Shown: piece after piece, positions 23,906 through 34,142 of the stretch | Numbering within the stretch: the stretch's first letter is position 1 | Layout: each line of letters begins with the position of its first letter | The notes under the pieces: model-generated | Told to the model about the DNA's origin: nothing | What the model saw: the letters and a program-made list of their open reading frames with translations, nothing else | Database searches by the model: none | Translations under genes and position numbers: made by a program | From: Protoeuglena noctilucae | Taxonomy: Eukaryota | DNA: 64,000 bases | Direction of reading: 5' to 3' | NCBI GenBank assembly: GCA_958009085.1 | Contig: OY253673.1 | Span: forward strand, 372,001-436,000

Positions 23906-26900
23906 TCAGGGGAGTAGCGGCTCGACGGCTGCCCATGTGGGCGCAGTGTAGGTGAAGGTGGACCTCGCCGGGTCTCTTGGGTGTAAGAGGGCGTCGTCAG
24001 GGTGCGTGCAGCGCGCGAGGGCCCACCCGCCCCGGTACGCCGCCAGAGCGACGAGCTCCTCGGCCATGATGCGCGTCATCTGCGCGAACAGCTGTGCCGG
24101 GGACGCGTCCGCCCCCGCGTCCTCCGTCAGCTGCTGCCGCCTGCGCCAGATGACCTGCACGGTCGCCCCCGCCACGACCGCCCACGTGAGCGGCCCCAAC
24201 CGCGCGCCCTCCGGCACGCGCAGCAGGAAGAGGGCCGACGGGCGGAGGGGCGCCCCCTGCGCCCCCCCCGCCCACGCCACGATGCCCCTTGCCACGCGCC
24301 ACACCTCCCGCGCGCGCGAGCACTCCCAGAACGCGTGGGCCGCGCTGTCCTTTCCCATGCACGCCTCCCCCTCCGTCGTCAGCAGCGGGCACTCGTCCCG
24401 CTCCGCCCAGTACATCCTGTCCTGCGTGGCCCACCCGTCCGCCAGCGTCAGCCACAGCCGCTCGTGCAGGGCGTCCGACAGCGGCAGTCCGTTGAGCGCC
24501 ACCAGCGTGCGCCTCAATCCCTCTCCCGTTATGCCGTGTCCCTCCCCCAGCGCCGCCGCCCAGCCCTCCGCCTTGCGCTCCAGCCGCTGCCGGATCGCCG
24601 CCCTGTCACACGTCGTCCTCGCCGCCTCCCGCACCGTGTAGGAGGCCAGGTCCAGCGCCGCCTTGGAGGCGACGCCGGGGTCCAGTGCCCAGCCCGGCGC
24701 GGTGGCCGTCATGGGCCGGTAGAAGTCGTTGGCCTCCCCGCCGCCCGGGGAGGCAAGTCGCAGGCGCTCCATGAAACCCTCCGTGAGCGCCAGCCCGTCC
24801 CACGGGTCCCATTGCCCCTCCACGTCTGGCCGGGCATACTCGTTGCCCGGCCCAAGGAGGCCCAGGTCCCGCATAAAAGCCCCAACCACCCAGCCGAGGC
24901 CCCTCCGATCCACCCCCGGCAGCCGATCATAGCCCAGCGCGAACGCCCAGGAGACCCACGTGTCCCATCGCCGCGCCGGGTCCCGCATGCAGAGATAATG
25001 CCCCACAGTTCCGAAACCCCGTAACGCCATCGCCCTCCCCACCGGGTGCAGGAGGAGGGGCCGGCCGCCCCCCGCCGGCCGCCCAGCACCCCCCTCGTCG
25101 ATCCCATCATCCGAATTGTCGTCGCCCGACGCGCCGTCGTGCACCCACGCCCCACCAGCCCTCCCATGGGCGCCCGTCGCGAAGCTGTGGAGCGATGAGG
25201 CCGAATCGTCTTGGTCCTGTCCCATGTCGTTGTGGAGGGGGCCAGCTGCCCCCTCCATCGCCGGCGCCCCCAGGGCTGCCACCCCCGCGCCCGGGCCGCC
25301 CCCGCCGGCGGCACAGAGGACCCCCGGGGTGAGAAGCGACGCGCAGAGTAGATCCCCCTTTGTAGTCCCAGTGACGGGGGTGAAGAAGTCCGTAGAAGAG
25401 GCGAAACGCGAGCCGTCCGTGCCCGCCAGGCCCCCGCCGCCCACGCGCGCCCCCCGCCAGCCATGCCCGTCCATGGCCACGTTGGACAGGCGGTCCGCCA
25501 GGGCGTTCTGCTCCCGTGGCACGTGCTCCCAAGTGATGTCGAGGCCCGCCGCGAGCCTCTGCGCCTCGGTCCACAGCGGCACCAGCGCCGGGTGCCGCAG
25601 CGCCGAGCAGTCCCGCGGATCCATGGCGCGGATGACGAGGAGGGAATCCCCCCGGACGCGGAGCTTGGTGGCGCCGAGCTCGACTGCCGCGCGTAGCCCT
25701 CCCAAAAGCGCGGCGAACTCGGCCTGGTTGTTGGAGGCCCCGCGCACGGCGGGGCCCGCGAGCTCCAGCGTCTCCACCCCCTCGCCTTCCCCGGCCGCCA
25801 GCACCGCCCCCGCGCCAGCCGTGGACGTGTCGGAACCGTTGCCCCGCGAGACCCCGTCGAAGTTGAGCGTCAGCCGGCCCTCCGCCGCCAGGTTGGTCCA
25901 GCGCTGCTGGGCGACCTCGTCCGTCGTGGGTGCCAGAGGTGGCGGCGCGTGCACGGGCCCGAGGGTCGCGCGCAGGGACCCGAGGCCCTTGATGGCGTCG
26001 CAGATGCTCTCGAGCGCCGGTAGCTTGCCCCGCAGGCGGCGGGACTCGATCAACTGCGCCACGTGGCAACCGTCCGTCTCGGGCAGTGAGAAGGGCAGCA
26101 GGCCCAGCCGGCCTGCCCCGAGCCCCTCCAGGCACGCCGTGAGGATGCCAGCGAGACCGCCCAACTGGCCGTGAGCGCCCACGCGCTTCGTGATGAGGGC
26201 GCGCGCCAGGTGCCGGAGCCGCCGCGCCGCCGTGTGCGCGTCCAGCGGGAGGGCGCCCAGCCCCCCCTCCTCCGGCGGGGCGGTCAGCATGATGCGGCCC
26301 ACACGGAACCACACCTGCCCCGCCGATCGTGCGTTGAGGACATAGCGCTCCTGGACCCTCCGCAGGTCAGCGACGCACGAGTGGTCGGCGGCGGGGGACA
26401 TCTCCAGGTGGTACCCCGCGAGCGAGGTGATGTAGGCGTTGGCGACGCGCGCCCGACCCCGGATCGGCAGCCCCAGCGATGACGCCGCGTCCGCGCGGCG
26501 CAGGGCCTCCCCCAGCCGCCCGGGCCACACCAGCGCCGCCTGCTCTCTCGTCTGCGCCCCCAGCAGCCGCACGCCCCCCGGCTCCACCCCCCACGGGCAG
26601 CCCTGCGCGGCGGCCTTGGCCTCCTGCCGCTTGTTGATGCGTCCCAGTCGGTAGAGCTTCGTCTTGGTCTGGCTCGCCTTCAGCCCGGACACACGGTGGA
26701 AGTCCCGCAGCACCTCGGCCAGCTCCCGCCACGGGTCGAGTTGGTTCCTGTCGCGCCCCACGAGCCGTTGGAGCAGCACGTTGAAGTCGTCGGCGAAGGC
26801 CAGCAGCGTCTCGGCCCTGCCGCCCGTCGTCCGGATGCCGAGCACGCGGTCGCACCGCGGGCCGCCCGGCAGCTGCACCGGCTCCTGGCCCCACGCCCGC

Positions 26901-29476
26901 AGCCTCTCTGCGAGGGGCTCCACCGCCAGCACGAAGATGAGCGGGCTCAGGGGGCATCCCTGCTTGACGCCCCGGTTGAGCGGGAACGGCTCCCCCGCCG
27001 CCCCGTTGAGGACCAGGCTCGCCCGGCTGTCGCTCTGCAGCGCCACCGCCGCCTTGACAAAACGCGGCGGGAGCCCTCCCCACGCCATCGCGTCCGCAGC
27101 CCACCCCCGGAAGGCCGTGTCGTACGCCTGTTTGAAGTCCACCAGCACCGCCCACGCCGACTGCCGCCGGATGCGCATGAGCTCGTCGAGCAGATGCAGC
27201 GAGAAGATGGCCGTCCCAATGTCACGCCCGGGGACGAAACCCAACTGGTCCTCGTGCACGAGCTGCGGCAGCACCCGCAGCAGCCGCGCCGTCAGCACCT
27301 TGGCCGAAGACTTGTAGAGGACGGACAGTAGGGAGATGGGGCGGTACCGCCGCCAGTCCGTCCGCGAGCCGCCCTTGTGGATGAGCGTGATGGCGGCGTC
27401 CGCGAGGCGGCCGTCGTGCCCCTCGCCGCGGAGGAGCTTGTTGACGAAGTAGGCGACCACCCGCTCGACACCCGCCTCGGTCCCGGTGCCCTGGCACGCC
27501 TTCAGCAGCGCCGGGGAGATGCCGTCCGCGCCACCGCAGCTGTCGCCCCGTAGACCCTGTATCGCCTCCGCCGCCTCCGCCCGTGTCACGTCTGCCTCGA
27601 GAGCGGCCCTCGCCTCCTCCGACAGCGGCGACCGCGGGTTGCGCAGGAAGTTAGCGCGTGCCCTCTCATGTTGGCCGTCCGCGGAGGCAGGGGGCGCGGC
27701 AGGGGCGTAGAGCTGGGCCATGTTGGTCTGCAGGTCCCGCGCGAGGTCGTCCGTGACGCCCTCGACCCGCCGCCGCCACTTGAAATGGGCCGTGATCCGC
27801 CGACTCGGCACGGCCCCGAAGACCCGCAGAAAGTGCTTCGCCCGCTCGCTCTGCCACTGGACCTCCTGCTGCTCCAGCACCGTCAGCTGGCGCTGCAGGT
27901 CCAGCATCCGGTCCCAGTCCTCCGTCGCGTTCGTCCGCTGCGCCCTCCTCTCTGCCCGTCCCAGTTGCTTCTCCAGACGCCTCCGCTCCCCGTCCCGCCG
28001 CCGCCGCACCACCAGGTTGATCGCCTCCGCGCGGTGCCGGATGACCTTGGCCACTCGCACCGACGTGCACCCCGGCCCGTCCGCCGGTAAGTCCCTCCAC
28101 ACACCCCGCCGGAATCGCTCGGCCTCATGGCTCCCCGGCGCCCAGAGCGGCCGGACCTGCCGCAGCGGGTTGCGCCCCGCGGCCCTGTCTGCCCGCCGCC
28201 GTAGCGTCAGGACGAGCGCCTTGTGGTCCAGCCCGGGCACGAAGCGCGCCGCCAGCGTCGCCGGGTACCGGACCAGCAGGGCCGGGCGCGCCAGGCAGCG
28301 GTCAATGCGCGCCGCCGGCGTCGCTGCCCCCTCCGCTCGCGCCCCGAACCACGTGTAGGTGTCCCGGCGCAGCCCCAGCTGCACGTGCACGTCCGCCAGC
28401 CCCTGCGGCCCCGTCACGTTCTCCGCCCAGTGGATGACCTTGGCCAGGTCGTCGTGGTAGCGCCGGGACGCCCGCTCGAGCGGGTGACCCGACGTGCAGT
28501 TGAAGTCCCCGACGACGATCGTCTCCCTGTGCGCCTGGCGAGGCGGCATCAGATGCCGCAGCCGCGCAGTGAAGTCCCTGTGCGCTGCCGCCCCCCCGGA
28601 CGCCGGCGCGTAGACCCCCACCACCGTGAAGCGCCGGTCGGCCCATGCGAGGTCGGCTGCGCACGCCCGCCCCGCCAGCCCTTCCACGTCCGCCCCGCGC
28701 CGCTTCGGCGCGCCCGCCACCGACTCCCGATGTACCAGCACCCCCACGCCCCCCGGGCCGCCGTTCTCGTCCAGCGACCAGTGGCAGAAGTATTGGGGGA
28801 AGAATCCCGACGCCACCGCCTCCTGCCCCGCCCGCATCTTGACCTCCTGTAGAACCACCACGTCCGCCCGCAGCCTCCGCACCAGCCGCCGCACCGTCGC
28901 CCGCTTGCCCGCCATGGCCCCGCTCGACAGCCCCCGCACGTTGACGCTGACGACCCGCAGGTCGTCGGGCGCGAGGTCCCGCGCCGCGCTCCGCCTTCCC
29001 CGTCGCCGTGGCCCGCGCGCCGGCACCGCGGCCGGCGCCATCCGCGGCGGCGGCGGCGGCGGGGGCAGATTCCCCAACGGCGGCAGCGGGATGGGTGGGA
29101 GCGCGCCGATACGCGCTCCCGGCGCCTCCCCAACCTCCGACCCTTGCGCTCCCGAGCTTCGAACGCCTCCAGACCGACTCTCCCCGCTCCCCCGGCCTCG
29201 CAGACCGCTCCCGCCCCCCCTTCTCCTCGCGCCGCCATGCTGCCCCAGCGCGCCCCCGCGCCGCGCACCCGCGCCCGCTCCGCCTCCTCCGCCCCCCGTA
29301 GACCCTCCTGCGATATCTTCTGAACCTTCTGCATGCAAAAGACCCGACGCCGGCCCCGCCCCGCCACCGCGCGGGCCCCGAACGCTCGAGCTAACAACAC
29401 CATCTGATCGGGCCGCCCCCGTCGCCGCATCCCCCTCCCGCCGGCCTCCCGGCCCATCCATGCTACAGATCGTCAT
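23906..29476 (-). CDS. Retrotransposon polyprotein: AP endonuclease + reverse transcriptase + RNase HI + CCHC zinc knuckle (intronless, ~1850 aa)
   Basis: APE: SVNVRGL, LQEVK, VGDFN, RIDR, DHK. RT: YRPISLL, DFKQAYD, GVKQGCPLSP, AFADD. RNase H: NFDGVSRGN, NNQAEF, GDS, HVPREQNALAD. Knuckle: CPLL...C...HAFWEC. First ATG at 29476; alternative at 29041. Confidence 0.96.
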   Translation of the reverse strand: MTICSMDGPGGRREGDAATGAARSDGVVSSSVRGPRGGGAGPASGLLHAEGSEDIAGGSTGGGGGGAGAGARRGGALGQHGGARRRGGGSGLRGRGSGESRSGGVRSSGAQGSEVGEAPGARIGALPPIPLPPLGNLPPPPPPPRMAPAAVPARGPRRRGRRSAARDLAPDDLRVVSVNVRGLSSGAMAGKRATVRRLVRRLRADVVVLQEVKMRAGQEAVASGFFPQYFCHWSLDENGGPGGVGVLVHRESVAGAPKRRGADVEGLAGRACAADLAWADRRFTVVGVYAPASGGAAAHRDFTARLRHLMPPRQAHRETIVVGDFNCTSGHPLERASRRYHDDLAKVIHWAENVTGPQGLADVHVQLGLRRDTYTWFGARAEGAATPAARIDRCLARPALLVRYPATLAARFVPGLDHKALVLTLRRRADRAAGRNPLRQVRPLWAPGSHEAERFRRGVWRDLPADGPGCTSVRVAKVIRHRAEAINLVVRRRRDGERRRLEKQLGRAERRAQRTNATEDWDRMLDLQRQLTVLEQQEVQWQSERAKHFLRVFGAVPSRRITAHFKWRRRVEGVTDDLARDLQTNMAQLYAPAAPPASADGQHERARANFLRNPRSPLSEEARAALEADVTRAEAAEAIQGLRGDSCGGADGISPALLKACQGTGTEAGVERVVAYFVNKLLRGEGHDGRLADAAITLIHKGGSRTDWRRYRPISLLSVLYKSSAKVLTARLLRVLPQLVHEDQLGFVPGRDIGTAIFSLHLLDELMRIRRQSAWAVLVDFKQAYDTAFRGWAADAMAWGGLPPRFVKAAVALQSDSRASLVLNGAAGEPFPLNRGVKQGCPLSPLIFVLAVEPLAERLRAWGQEPVQLPGGPRCDRVLGIRTTGGRAETLLAFADDFNVLLQRLVGRDRNQLDPWRELAEVLRDFHRVSGLKASQTKTKLYRLGRINKRQEAKAAAQGCPWGVEPGGVRLLGAQTREQAALVWPGRLGEALRRADAASSLGLPIRGRARVANAYITSLAGYHLEMSPAADHSCVADLRRVQERYVLNARSAGQVWFRVGRIMLTAPPEEGGLGALPLDAHTAARRLRHLARALITKRVGAHGQLGGLAGILTACLEGLGAGRLGLLPFSLPETDGCHVAQLIESRRLRGKLPALESICDAIKGLGSLRATLGPVHAPPPLAPTTDEVAQQRWTNLAAEGRLTLNFDGVSRGNGSDTSTAGAGAVLAAGEGEGVETLELAGPAVRGASNNQAEFAALLGGLRAAVELGATKLRVRGDSLLVIRAMDPRDCSALRHPALVPLWTEAQRLAAGLDITWEHVPREQNALADRLSNVAMDGHGWRGARVGGGGLAGTDGSRFASSTDFFTPVTGTTKGDLLCASLLTPGVLCAAGGGGPGAGVAALGAPAMEGAAGPLHNDMGQDQDDSASSLHSFATGAHGRAGGAWVHDGASGDDNSDDGIDEGGAGRPAGGGRPLLLHPVGRAMALRGFGTVGHYLCMRDPARRWDTWVSWAFALGYDRLPGVDRRGLGWVVGAFMRDLGLLGPGNEYARPDVEGQWDPWDGLALTEGFMERLRLASPGGGEANDFYRPMTATAPGWALDPGVASKAALDLASYTVREAARTTCDRAAIRQRLERKAEGWAAALGEGHGITGEGLRRTLVALNGLPLSDALHERLWLTLADGWATQDRMYWAERDECPLLTTEGEACMGKDSAAHAFWECSRAREVWRVARGIVAWAGGAQGAPLRPSALFLLRVPEGARLGPLTWAVVAGATVQVIWRRRQQLTEDAGADASPAQLFAQMTRIMAEELVALAAYRGGWALARCTHPDDALLHPRDPARSTFTYTAPTWAAVEPLLP

Positions 29477-29884
29477 TTTACCGCACGCTGCCAAGCGCGC
29501 GGCGCCTCGCAAGCCCCCCTCGGCTCCGGGGCGCGGCTCGTCCCGAGCCAACGAGACCGAGCGGCTGTGCCTTCACCTGGCGCCTGCCAGGGGTTTTGCG
29601 AACTCGCCTCCTGCCTAGAGAGTCGCGATGCACATGACCGTTCCGCCGCACCCCTCGCCACCCTCCCGCTCGCGCTACGCCGACGGCCTACCTGATGATG
29701 ATGAGCGATGATGATCCCGCGCGCCTAATCCGATGATGAAAGCGAAAGCCCCCCCTGGGCGGGCCAGCGCGTCGACTATTGAGGCGAAACGCGAGGCGTC
29801 GAGAGGCGTGATGCGAGCCGTCGACGGATCGGAAAAAGGTCACTAAACACTTCTCCACAACGATCACGCCATTTAGACCTCCGC

Positions 29885-29902: not shown

Positions 29903-29986
29903 TAGCAGTGGTGGGGTTCGAACCCACGCGCACTTTCGTGCAGATGCTCTTAAGGCACCCTCCTTGAACCACTCGGACACACTGCC
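29903..29986 (-). tRNA. trnL-UAA: tRNA-Leu(UAA), intronless, long variable arm
   Basis: GGCAGTG-TGTCCGAGTGGTTCAAGGAG-GGTGC CT TAA GA GCATC-TGCACGAAAGTGCG-CGTGGGTTCGAACCCCAC-CACTGCTA. A and B boxes, acceptor stem and an AT-rich element ~30 nt upstream are all present. Confidence 0.95.
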
Positions 29987-30253: not shown

Positions 30254-33200
30254 ATGGCGTCGCGTTTCTGGGCGGCCGCCTCGTCCTCGGAGGAAGAGAG
30301 CTCGGAGAAGAGCGAGTCGAGCGAGGTGGGGGGAGGGACGCTGCGCGCGCCGGCAATGCCCCAGCGTAGGTTCGAGGCCACGGGACCCCAGCGGCAGCGC
30401 CGGCGCCCCGGCGGATCCGCGCGCCACGCCCCGCCCGCAGTGGGGCTCGGAGGGGTCCGAGTCCGAGTCCGATGACTCCTCCAAATCGTCTTCCGAGAGC
30501 TCTTCGTCGGGGTCCTCGTCCGAGGTGGGGCCGGATCCGCGCGCAGGGGGCGCGCCCGGTGCCCGGGGGCCCCCGCGAACGTGGCGGTGGCTGCTGCGCC
30601 GCGTGCCGTCCCCGGGGGCCGCCTCCCGCCCGCGCGGGCGCTGACTGGGCTTCCTCATGTCATCGCAGAACGCGAGGAACAAGTTCTTGGCCGGGGGCGA
30701 TTCGGACTGGGACTCGGACGACTCGGACGCCCGGGGCGGCAAGCGCACCGTCCGCTCGGGCCGGGACAAAATCCTCTCGGCCATCTCCGACGTCGCGGAC
30801 GCGATCGACGATGCCGTGGATGCCGGGGAGTGGACGGTCGTGCTTGACAAGGTCGACGACCTCTTCCAGGCCGCCGACAAGTGGGTCACCCTCACGTCGG
30901 GACCCACGCGCAAGGGCCGCGTCCCGAACGCCTTCGTGCGCGCCCTCGTGGAGCTCGAGGACGGCGTCGAGAAGCAGTTCGCGGAGGAGAACAAGGAGGA
31001 GCTCAAGAAGCTGAACAAGGCGAGACGCGCAAGCTGCGCGCGCCACCGCCGAGGCGCAGGCCCCGGCGCCCCGGCCCGCGACGCGCCCTTCCGGCCCGTG
31101 CTCCGCAGACGAACGCGAAGGCGCTCAACACCCTGCGCCAGCGCCTGCGGAAGGCCGTGCAGGTGGACGACCTGCCCGAGCTGATGAAGCGGTGCCGCGC
31201 CGACCCCGGGGACTTCCTGGAGGAGGACGAGGAGGCGGACGAGGGCGGCGCGGAGGCGGACCGGGCCGCGGAACCGGAGAAGGACTCGATCTTTTCGATG
31301 GACCCCAAGGACATCACGTTCAAGGTCGTGAACGAGAAGCTGCAGGAGGCGCGGCTGCAGCGGGGGCGCAAGGGCGTGTCGCGGCAGGACCAGCTCAACC
31401 TCCTCCTCTTCCTGCGCCGCCACGCCAAGGGCCAGGCGCAGGAGGTGGCCGTTGTCCTGGCGCTCATCAGCCTCATGTTTGACCTCCTGCCCGCCACCGC
31501 CACGCACCTCCCCGCGGCCCTCTGGCGCCGCTCGGTGCTCTACCTCTCCCACGTCCTCGACGTCGTCGAGACGTCCGGGTCCGTCGTCGTGGACGAGCTC
31601 GCCGTGTCGTTCGACGAGGCCACCGACGAGCCCGACGCCGCCGCGGGGCCCGTGCGCGTGCCGGGCAACCTGGTGGGCCTCGTGGAGCGCCTCGACGAGG
31701 AGCTCTTTAAGTGCCTCCAGCACACGGACCCCCACACCAACGAGTACCTCTCGCGGCTCAAGGACGAGGCCGTGCTGCTCGCCGTGGCCCAGCGCGTGTC
31801 CAAGTACCTGGAGAGCCGGGGCGACACGGCCGGCGTGGCGCGCGTGGCCCTGCGGCGCATCGAGCACTACTACTTCAAGACGGACGCGGTCTTCGAGGCG
31901 CTGCGGCGGACAGCGCAGGAGCCCATCGCCATCACCATGAAGGACGCCGAGACGCGGCTCTCCTTTGCCATGGAGCGCGAGGGCGCCGAGATGCCGGTCG
32001 AGGACGACGGCGCGGAGGAGGCGGAGGCGCCGCCCGTCGAGGAGGCCGTCGCGCGGATGGTGAGCGGCTTGTGGCGGGCGCGGAGAGTCGTGGGCGCGGA
32101 GTTGCCTCATAGCCCACCAAGCCTTGGGTCACGCGGTGCGGTCGCCGTCTCTGCCAGCGGGCGATTCGGCGTGGACGCGTACGCTGGGGTGGTCCTAACC
32201 GTGGCGCGCTCAACTCCTCCCGGCGCCCCCCCGACCCCCGCAGACGCTTCGGCTGGACATCTCGCGTGACGAGACGCTGACGGACGTGGTCAAGAGCCTG
32301 GCGCAGGTCATCTACCGCCACGGCGACGAGCGCTCCAAGACCCGCGCGCTCCTCTGCTCCGTCTACCACCTCTCCCTGCGCGGGGCCTTCTACCAGGCGC
32401 GGGACACGCTCCTCATGTCTCACCTCCAGGAGAGCGTGACGAACATGGACATCCAAACGCAGATCCTGTTCAACCGCGCCATGGCCATGTTCGGCATCTG
32501 CAAATTCAAGGCCGGCCTCATCCAGGAGTCGTACAACTGCATGGCGGAGCTCTACGGGTCGGGGCACGCCAAGGAGCTCCTGGCCCAGGGCCTCATCCAG
32601 TCCAAGACGCCGGAGAAGACGCAGGAGCAGGAGGCGCTGGAGCGGCGCAGGCAGATGCCCTTCCACATGCACATCAACCTGGAGCTCATGGAGGTGAGGG
32701 CGGGAGCCGTGGCGGGCGGCACAGATGAAGCGCGTGCATGCGGCTGGCGTCTCAGCGTTCGCCTGTCCCTGTCTGGCCTTGTTTGATCTCGTCGCGTTCT
32801 AATTATCCGCAGACGGTTCACCTGTCTTGCTGCCTGGTGCTGGACCTGCCCCAGCTGGTGCGGGGTGGCCGCGCCGCCATGCAGTCGCTGCCCTTCAAGC
32901 GTCTGATGGACAACCAGGCCAAGGCCTCGTTCATCGGCCCGCCCGAGACGGTCCGCGACCACATCATGGCCGGCGCGCGGGCGCTGCTGCAGGGCGACTG
33001 GGAGCTGGCCATGTCATATGTGTCGGCCTTAAAGGCGTGGGACCTGCTGCCCCAGAAGGCCAATGCCATGGAGATGCTGCGCGAGCAGCTCAAGAAGACG
33101 GCGCTCAAGGCGAGTCTCGGGGTCTATGTTTCTTGGGGCATAGCTGTGGCACAGGTGGGGGTCTGTGTTGACGGCCGGTGACGAGGGAGAAGCGTGCCGA

Positions 33201-34142
33201 GTAGGCGCCAGCCTGTGCGGATCTGACGTTTTTCGATATGGTGAACAATCTCCGAGGCCTGGACTGTGCGACCTTTTAGATAACGGCGCGACCGATGACG
33301 AATGTGCTTGTGAGACCTGAACCCATTAGGCCAACGGACGCTCCCTTGGACCTATGCGGAGGACTCAAGCTATGCGGTTTCTTTCCGAGGTCGCGCCCGT
33401 GCCCGCCGCCCCCGCTCCCGTCGCCCCGCGTCCCCGCAGACACGCCGTGACGACGCCCGGTGCCCGCCCCTTGCCGCAGGTGTACCTCCTGAAGTTCGCG
33501 GACGCTTACTCGTCCATCTCGGTGCCCCAGCTGACGATGATGTTCCAGCTGCCCCGCGAGGAGGTGCTGACGATCGCGTCTCAGATGGCCTACTACAACG
33601 ACTTGGCGGGGTCGCTCGACCAGCCCAGTCAGACCATCGTCATCTCTCGCGTCCGGCCCAGCGAGCTCCACGCCCAGGCCCAGGGCGTCATCGAGCGCGC
33701 GCGCCACATCGTCGAGATGAACGAGCGGGCCCTCCAGGCACGGCCCGCGCCTCGCTCCCTTTGTTGCCCGCTCGCGCGCTGCCCCCCTGGCCCGGCTTGT
33801 GCACCGCCGCTGCCGACGTCCGCGAGACATGCGCCTGGGTGTTCCCTGCAGGTGCGCCTGGGTGGTCTCCAGGACCAGGACGAGGAGGGGCGGCCGATCG
33901 ACCGGGCGGGCGACGAGCGGGGGGCGCGGCGGTCGCGGATGCGGGGGGGGTTCAGCCACCAGCGCATGCGGCAGTTCGTCCAGGGGGAGCGCATGCCGCG
34001 GTCGGAGTTCGCGCTGCGGGGGCGCGGGCGCGGCCGGGGCTCGCGGGGGCGCGGGATGGTGCGACTGGAGGGGCTCGGGCGCTTCCGGGTGGGCGGGCCG
34101 GGGCGGGGCGCCCAGGGCGCCGCGGCGGCTGCGCGCGACTGA
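30254..34142 (+). CDS. eIF3c: Eukaryotic translation initiation factor 3 subunit C, spliced
   Basis: MASRFW + acidic Ser tract, NAKALNTLRQRLRK, ERLDEELFKCLQHTDPHTNEY, QILFNRAMA, RRRQMPFHMHINLELME, GPPETVRDH, PCI domain and RG-rich tail. Confidence 0.95.
33173..33259 (+). ncRNA. Intronic box C/D snoRNA, predicted guide for LSU rRNA A-loop Um (yeast U2921 / E. coli U2552 equivalent)
   Basis: Terminal stem ggcc/ggcc, box C GTGACGA (33178), box D CCGA (33252). Guide ggtgaacaatc is complementary to conserved LSU GAUUGUUCACC, and the D+5 rule lands on the U of UGUUC. Confidence 0.75.
33285..33397 (+). ncRNA. Second intronic box C/D snoRNA candidate, target not identified
   Basis: 9-bp perfect terminal stem ggcgcgacc/ggtcgcgcc, box C ATGACGA (33295), internal CTGA (33317), box D CCGA (33385). 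Same architecture as the upstream unit. Confidence 0.65.

Follow-up and report, generated by a model that had tools for sequence, protein, structure and literature searches.

Small nucleolar RNAs of the box C/D type with a C·C kink-turn pair in an eIF3c intron of Protoeuglena noctilucae and across its genome

In a 64-kb stretch of the Protoeuglena noctilucae genome (the window; G000:C6:372001-436000), an intron of the eIF3c gene holds two sequences built like box C/D small nucleolar RNA (snoRNA) genes. Both miss the canonical box consensus by one position per box (RUGACGA and CCGA), so that the 3b·3n pair of the kink turn (K-turn), U·U in the textbook motif, would be C·C. The locus raises the question of whether these are genuine snoRNA genes and whether the lineage has exchanged its U·U consensus for C·C, as an initial annotation of the window proposed. 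The genome comprises 26.3 Mb in 27 contigs and is ~67% GC. Our sequence comparisons indicate that the genes are real and conserved, and that their variant of the box C/D motif recurs throughout the algal genome in a structurally patterned way.

Two snoRNA genes in an eIF3c intron

Both units follow the order stem-G-RTGACGA...CCGA-stem. Unit 1 (33173-33259, + strand), defined by pattern, guide, and homologue alignment, has a 4-bp terminal stem in which GGCC at 33173-76 pairs with 33256-59. The GGCC arm is followed by a G and then by box C, GUGACGA (DNA, GTGACGA; 33178-33184, +); box D (33252-33255, +) is CCGA, as it is in 5/5 aligned homologues. Unit 2 (33285-33397, +) has a 9-bp stem (33285-93/33389-97), box C AUGACGA (DNA, ATGACGA; 33295-33301, +), and box D CCGA (33385-33388, +), with a U-rich stretch 5' of the box. 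Tandem G·A/A·G pairs, G-C at 4b-4n, a 3-nt bulge, and a terminal stem can be drawn in both units. The boxes are thus predicted still to form a K-turn, in which C·C instead of U·U at 3b·3n would be the only changed pair. When both strands of the window were searched for all four RTGAYGA..CYGA combinations with a stem of at least 4 bp, units 1 and 2 were the only ones found. Unit 2 folds significantly better than shuffled sequence (z = -3.0; 0/200 shuffles fold equally well); the fold of unit 1 is unexceptional (z = 0.37).

The host intron (33110-33479, +; 370 nt, GCGAGT...GCAG) is of the GC-AG type. Its excision, a predicted splice read from the sequence, leaves the eIF3c exons in frame (LKKTALK joined to VYLLKF). 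The two adjoining introns of the gene measure ~119 and 114 nt, versus 370 nt for the snoRNA-bearing one. The nearest named eIF3c is that of Pedinophyceae sp. YPF-701 (55% identity; 9 matches out of 8000 scored candidates). Together with a U3 that matches Plant_U3, this points to a chlorophyte and probably to a pedinophyte. A second GC-AG intron lies in the same gene (window 33738-33851, +; 114 nt), at a point where the orthologue in locus L238, described below, is intronless; GC-AG introns may be common in this genome.

At the gathering score, Rfam gave zero snoRNA matches in the window. Below threshold, unit 1 matched snoTBR2 through its guide (E = 0.019; 24.2 bits versus a gathering score of 62) and archaeal sR-tMet through its boxes. 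Because Rfam also missed canonical snoRNAs neighbouring C·C genes in loci L002 and L011, the miss is not box specific. One contig of RNA run X7 was confined to the intron (33150-33437), run X12 gave unspliced contigs, run X11 gave nothing, and no splice joints were seen in these runs. We did not use these contigs as evidence because a snoRNA is indistinguishable from pre-mRNA or DNA at the contig level.

Guide pairing was scored against this genome's own ribosomal RNA (rRNA) sequences. The D guide of unit 1 (33240-33250, +) forms 11 of 11 Watson-Crick pairs with the A-loop of the large-subunit (LSU) rRNA and places the D+5 position on the bracketed U of GAU[U]GUUCACC, which is U2833 of the Rfam-delimited LSU and the equivalent of yeast U2921. 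The unit therefore has an antisense element of at least 10 nt that obeys the D+5 rule at a known 2'-O-methylation site. The pairing had been proposed in the initial annotation, which named a mismatch with the organism's own A-loop as grounds for rejection. Its statement that this uridine is guided by snR52 in yeast likewise agrees with the literature: U2921 is methylated (Um2921) via snR52, with Spb1 as backup (PMC11121408). We conclude that unit 1 most likely directs 2'-O-methylation of the A-loop uridine. As the A-loop U is methylated in Arabidopsis, where it had no assigned guide (PMC8053127), unit 1 is a green-lineage candidate for a guide at that site. Two inverted copies of the nuclear LSU rRNA lie ~47 kb apart in the assembly, at G000:C12:812274-815521 (-) and 862105-865352 (+), and contig C27 holds an organellar-type LSU pair, also in inverted orientation.

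A metagenome scan with a pattern that required TGACGA and permitted CYGA, so that canonical homologues could not be counted, gave 20 matches; on reading, 6 were snoRNAs (L238, L242, L244, L248, L253, and L255) and 14 were chance. L238 is the same eIF3c intron in another organism, with the same exon downstream and two units (L238a and L238b), both C·C; it bears out, together with the coordinates and the frame join, the initial description of two C/D units with 4-bp and 9-bp stems in a 370-nt GC-AG intron. L244 is a single C·C copy in an intron of another gene. The eIF3c intron, L238, and L244 all have RTGACGA/CCGA, though the scan pattern tolerated CUGA. TGACGA is invariant in 5/5 aligned homologues, three rows of which were found by, or beside, the pattern that demanded it. 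Over the five homologues, 90% of cells are paired in the register of the terminal stem and at most 50% once that register is slid; 34/500 shuffles equalled this pairing, so the covariation itself is weak. Three of the six metagenome snoRNAs (L242, L248, and L255) are related, carry A-loop guides, and come from a single assembly (GC, 0.47 to 0.54); two of them have C·U and the third has C·C. The low-GC contig L242 looks C·C beside its C·U relatives, and sporadic eukaryotic C·C cases therefore exist.

Alignment identifies units 1 and 2 as paralogues whose ancestor had a D' guide ending in UGAGAC-CUGA and the D guide GGUGAACAAUC. Unit 1 is without the D' guide to C38 of the small-subunit (SSU) rRNA; unit 2 is without the LSU guide, and its C38 guide is interrupted. 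The degenerate D' guide of unit 2, CUUGUGAGAC, with its D' box CUGA (33307-33320, +), has SSU C38 as its ancestral, snoR66-type target. Around C38, L238b forms 12 bp (-16.0 kcal/mol) and unit 2 a broken duplex (-12.4 kcal/mol). An intact C38 guide occurs elsewhere in the genome, in L269 (G000:C3:398666, -), which, like L238b, is a weak match to Rfam snoR66. For the D guide of unit 2, the U-rich stretch before box D, we found no conserved rRNA target. LSU C1952 (10 bp with one G·U, -15.7 kcal/mol) was rejected as a target of unit 2 because the pairing is not kept in the guides of the homologues. Also rejected was the wobble position of transfer RNA (tRNA)-Met/Val as a D' target, an idea taken from the sR-tMet match: a loose tRNA pattern gave 186 matches versus 209 for the control. 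At the 11 other genomic matches to the unit 2 guide complement there were 0 tRNA genes, the elongator tRNA-Met gene not being among the tRNAs recovered. Unit 2 is therefore a duplicate whose guides have decayed while its boxes and a significant fold have been retained. The initial impression of an orphan is refined to that of a unit 1 paralogue with a degenerate C38 guide.

Box classes across the genome

The genome scan suggested in the initial annotation, run as CCGRTGACGA-N50-110-CCGAGG, found 14 matches, versus 3 for the reversed pattern. The more general CC-N-RTGAYGA...CYGA-GG had 78 matches (control, 19) and the GC.../GC stem class 79 (control, 27). Every CC/GG and GC/GC match was retrieved, and the four classes with a pyrimidine at each position of 3b·3n were therefore sampled alike. 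The WC/GW stem class was not enriched (71 matches versus 63 in the control). Other stem classes were sampled: 30 of these 71, plus 7 picked by eye or covered by flanks, and 30 of 176 SG/CS matches.

The 566 kb sampled contained 218 candidates with a stem of at least 2 bp: 79 C·C, 51 C·U, 48 U·C, and 40 U·U. Requiring a guide of at least 11 bp and a stem of at least 3 bp kept 21 of the 218, namely, 11/79 C·C, 5/51 C·U, 5/40 U·U, and 0/48 U·C. At the same thresholds, shuffled rRNA gave a mean of 0.5 (maximum, 2; 20 shuffles) and antisense rRNA gave 0. With a guide of at least 10 bp and a stem of at least 2 bp, 12 C·C, 10 C·U, 5 U·U, and 1 U·C remained (shuffles, 3.9). For the guide-supported counts, Fisher P is 0.012, or 0.004 with one register corrected. 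Scanning for guides first turned up more snoRNAs in which box C takes other forms; the terminal box D of all of these is CUGA.

We also curated 37 regions, hand-picked and with boxes set by geometry; four of them have no strong guide (unit 2, L009b, L027, and L106b) and one, L203, is stemless. In this set, C·C accounts for 14 regions, U·U for 12, C·U for 7, G·U for 3, and U·C for 1. Were the two positions independent, 5.7 U·C regions would be expected rather than the 1 seen (P = 0.0011). All 14 C·C units have C:G at -1b:-1n, which favours folding. Positions for which C·C snoRNAs are the sole predicted guides include SSU U1190, G1555, and U1361 and LSU A2552 and A760. C·C, C·U, and U·U coexist even within one cluster (L037, L002, and L121). 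L037a, an orthologue of U15, has ATGACGAG as its guide and GAGATGA as its box C and is counted as U·U, not C·U.

The C·C pair extends to U3. The only U3 found matches Rfam Plant_U3 and has ACGACGA/CCGA as its C'/D motif, versus UGAuGA/CUGA in the Plant_U3 consensus. A U14 candidate (L422:1480-1615; G000:C8:527887-527997; 42.8 bits, below the cutoff) has U at 3b and CUGA; its box C region is irregular (GAUGAUCGA) and ambiguous in register, and it stands outside the tally.

We conclude that C·C is the commonest class in this genome and not a replaced consensus. The idea of a lineage-specific C/D consensus stands insofar as C·C occurs genome-wide, U3 included; with C·C at 11 of 21 guide-supported and 14 of 37 curated genes, beside U·U at 12/37 and C·U at 7/37, the wholesale replacement first envisaged is not supported. 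The link between the boxes runs one way. CCGA occurs almost only with UGACGA, and UGACGA does not need CCGA. Of the co-variation initially proposed, a conditional dependence is what is left, not strict compensation.

Two or three snoRNAs lie together at each of L002, L009, L011, L037, L050, L106, L121, and L191 on G000 contigs C1, C4, C6, C10, and C19, and in many of these clusters units of the C·C, C·U, and U·U types are combined. Many of their guides match plant families by comparison (U15, snoR44, snoR32, and U61 types); none of the cluster snoRNAs tested against Rfam reached the cutoff. The 3b·3n pair of L269 and L191, whose box C sequences are GCGAGGG and GUGAGGA, respectively, is G·U, a class under-sampled by the patterns. 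A C·C snoRNA at L011:1504-1575 (G000:C10:380009) has a D' guide that pairs over 12 bp with the 5' extremity of the SSU, with D+5 at U8, a region bound by U3 as well. In the window, a tRNA gene (29903-29986, -) lies between eIF3c and a 1888-amino-acid open frame 5' of it (23906-29572, -). By eye this frame resembles a non-long-terminal-repeat retrotransposon with endonuclease, reverse transcriptase, and RNase H-like parts.

Drift, folding, and proteins

We consider it probable that these are real snoRNAs, duplicated in tandem, whose 3b·3n pair has drifted under GC pressure within limits set by K-turn stability and with ordinary proteins. The ancestor, with two guides (D' for SSU C38 and D for the LSU A-loop U), would have undergone tandem duplication. 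Unit 1 would have retained the A-loop guide; unit 2 would have lost it and been left with a decayed C38 guide, the C38 job being covered by another gene (L269). GC pressure would drive U-to-C changes at 3b·3n genome-wide along an ordered path, with box C changing first (U·U to C·U, which plants also have as a minority form) and box D next (C·U to C·C). U·C would be largely purged, most plausibly as the least stable K-turn, whereas U·U, C·U, and C·C would all be tolerated by apparently unmodified Snu13, Nop56, and Nop58. The filter is needed because the U·C class is missing though GC pressure would account for both U-to-C changes.

Measurements on Kt-7 give such a filter a scale. In Mg2+, E(FRET) (fluorescence resonance energy transfer) by 3b·3n pair is 0.56 for CC, 0.51 for CU, 0.41 for UU, and 0.16 for UC (McPhee 2014; PMC4382518, Suppl. 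Table 1), CC being joint best and UC the lowest of 16 (PMC4382518). The extremes of Kt-7 folding match those of the algal class counts.

Several points weigh against drift with a folding filter. The counts depend on the search patterns (RTGAYGA, for the most part closed by C:G), and the 37 curated regions were picked by hand. There is a probable U·C snoRNA, L106a, with a 13-bp SSU guide and an ambiguous ATGATGACGA register. U·C Kt-7 bound by L7Ae folds normally (0.57), and the ranks were measured on ribosomal Kt-7, not on box C/D K-turns (PMC4382518). Other positions keep box C/D K-turns poorly folded (Ashraf 2017; PMC5689011). A C-U pair lowered the affinity of archaeal L7, according to a second-hand account of Kuhn 2002 that does not state the orientation (PMC6461891). 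We compared plants and Chlamydomonas through the searchable part of supplementary file 2 of PMC5122169, with the search approach checked on known labels. Chlamydomonas has 175 entries there, of which the first 29 include 19 C/D genes, with 18 U versus 1 C at 3b and no terminal CCGA. These plant and Chlamydomonas sets may favour canonical boxes. Chlamydomonas is GC-rich and yet canonical in this possibly biased sample, so GC content alone is insufficient.

The Kt-7 ranks could also be taken as a sign of adaptation. The lineage would then favour C·C because it folds with metal ions and without protein, or is ionically stabler, easing or re-ordering the assembly of small nucleolar ribonucleoproteins (snoRNPs), in convergence with halophilic archaea. 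In favour of this, C·C outnumbers every other class, extends to U3, and ties for the best Mg2+ folding in Kt-7; nevertheless, about one-third of the snoRNAs are still U·U, the U14 candidate among them. The folding-favourable C:G at -1b:-1n in 14/14 curated C·C units points the same way, but most search patterns impose that closing pair, and G:C at 4b:4n still hinders ion folding (PMC5689011). The Natronorubrum copy of sR-tMet is C·C, versus U·U in its methanogen homologue; haloarchaea are also GC-rich, so this convergence fits drift equally. We regard an adaptive shift of this kind as unlikely. We hold it to be conceivable but doubtful that the box C/D K-turns of this lineage, that of U3 among them, have shifted towards Mg2+ folding without protein, convergently with halophilic archaea. 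If true, this would run counter to the published rule, under which evolution keeps box C/D K-turns from folding before Snu13/L7Ae is bound. A single genome would then provide C·C, C·U, and U·U, and almost no U·C, as a natural allelic series; its extremes track in vitro folding ranks, and its snoRNA classes might differ in assembly dependence.

Were the proteins the cause, altered contacts of Snu13 or Nop56/58 would have relaxed or switched recognition of 3b·3n. The strong conservation of U·U in human box C/D K-turns and the strong preference for it in archaeal ones (Ashraf 2017; PMC5689011) would accord with such a role. Snu13, Nop56, and Nop58 genes are present in the genome (Nop56 read by eye). 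The RNA-binding stretch of Nop58 and exon 3 of Snu13 align closely, at the sequence level, with the human and yeast proteins and have no striking change. U4, moreover, keeps G-C at its 3b·3n position. Work by Watkins in 2002 reportedly gave stem II a role in Nop56/58 recruitment, a point in favour of protein co-evolution, which we nonetheless judge quite improbable. It is very improbable indeed that GC pressure has turned the C·C copies into nonfunctional or decaying genes: the guides of unit 2 are degenerate, Spb1 can back up A-loop methylation in yeast (PMC11121408), and expression of C·C snoRNAs is predicted only, but the only U3 found is C·C, 11 C·C units have guides of at least 11 bp (several have two guides), C·C is conserved in other organisms, and avoidance of U·C is not expected from decay.

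Filtered drift thus remains the account that we prefer. A eukaryote in which C·C is commonest and U·C nearly absent is a natural test of the role of the pair (folding control versus protein contact) and ties genome statistics to measured K-turn folding rules. The occurrence of C·C in many algal guides challenges the textbook U·U rule of box C/D construction, and snoRNA inventories of GC-rich algae may lack a large share of genes. The initial annotation expected standard finders to miss such snoRNAs. This holds by rule for one of them, snoReport 2.0, the finder to which our evidence is confined: it demands at least one U at the 3b·3n pair (PMC5249026) and would therefore reject 14 of the 37 curated genes.

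Comparison with known systems

In target, unit 1 resembles yeast snR52 and trypanosome snoTBR2 (RF02786), which address the LSU A-loop U (Um2921; Um2552 in Escherichia coli) with the same D+5 geometry. It shares with snoTBR2 the guide end and spacer before box D (UGAACAAUCu). Unlike both, it has UGACGA/CCGA instead of UGAUGA/CUGA, and its body cannot be aligned above the Rfam cutoff. In unit 2, L238a/b, and L244, the UGAGAC-CUGA end of the D' guide recalls plant snoR66 (RF00202; SSU C38). In contrast to snoR66, the guide of unit 2 is interrupted, and the intact copy, L269, is of the G·U type with box C GCGAGGG.

Land plants and Chlamydomonas share the C·U combination (UGACGA/CUGA) with the alga, as a minority (PMC5122169). 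Box labels in the searchable part of that set number 133 RTGACGA versus 1507 RTGATGA and 140 CCGA versus 3120 CTGA; among the first 30 of the 140 CCGA boxes, 29 are D' boxes (PMC5122169). No terminal xxxACGA/CCGA pair with box C at positions 4 to 19 occurs in the searchable part of the set (PMC5122169). CCGA in PMC3542256 and PMC2656528 is, where it appears, a D' box in both. Our literature search found no description of a eukaryotic terminal C·C, though subscription papers and bioRxiv supplements may hold a mention. The intronic organization of snoRNAs in Chlamydomonas is said to have been described by Chen in 2008.

Another alga offers a parallel case of lineage-specific, co-varying box C/D substitutions. 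In GtNM-R12-14 of the Guillardia theta nucleomorph, as in P. noctilucae, both boxes have changed; there, unlike here, the Watson-Crick pair between the end of box C and the start of box D is swapped and U·U is retained (PMC6461891).

The C·C K-turn has an archaeal precedent. A prokaryote scan returned at least 120 stretches, mostly chance bacterial matches. Four archaeal ones were compared with Rfam; one was C·C (L322), two were U·U (L302 and L315), and one was without a match (L341). Haloarchaeal sR-tMet (RF02163) has terminal GGCC-G-AUGACGA...CCGA-GGCC, the same C·C K-turn as the algal units. C·C is found both in the Rfam family consensus and in the Natronorubrum copy (67.9 bits). sR-tMet differs from the algal units in being archaeal, a single family, and a named tRNA-Met guide, and it is not homologous to them. 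We conclude from sR-tMet that the C·C K-turn is neither unprecedented nor unique to this lineage.

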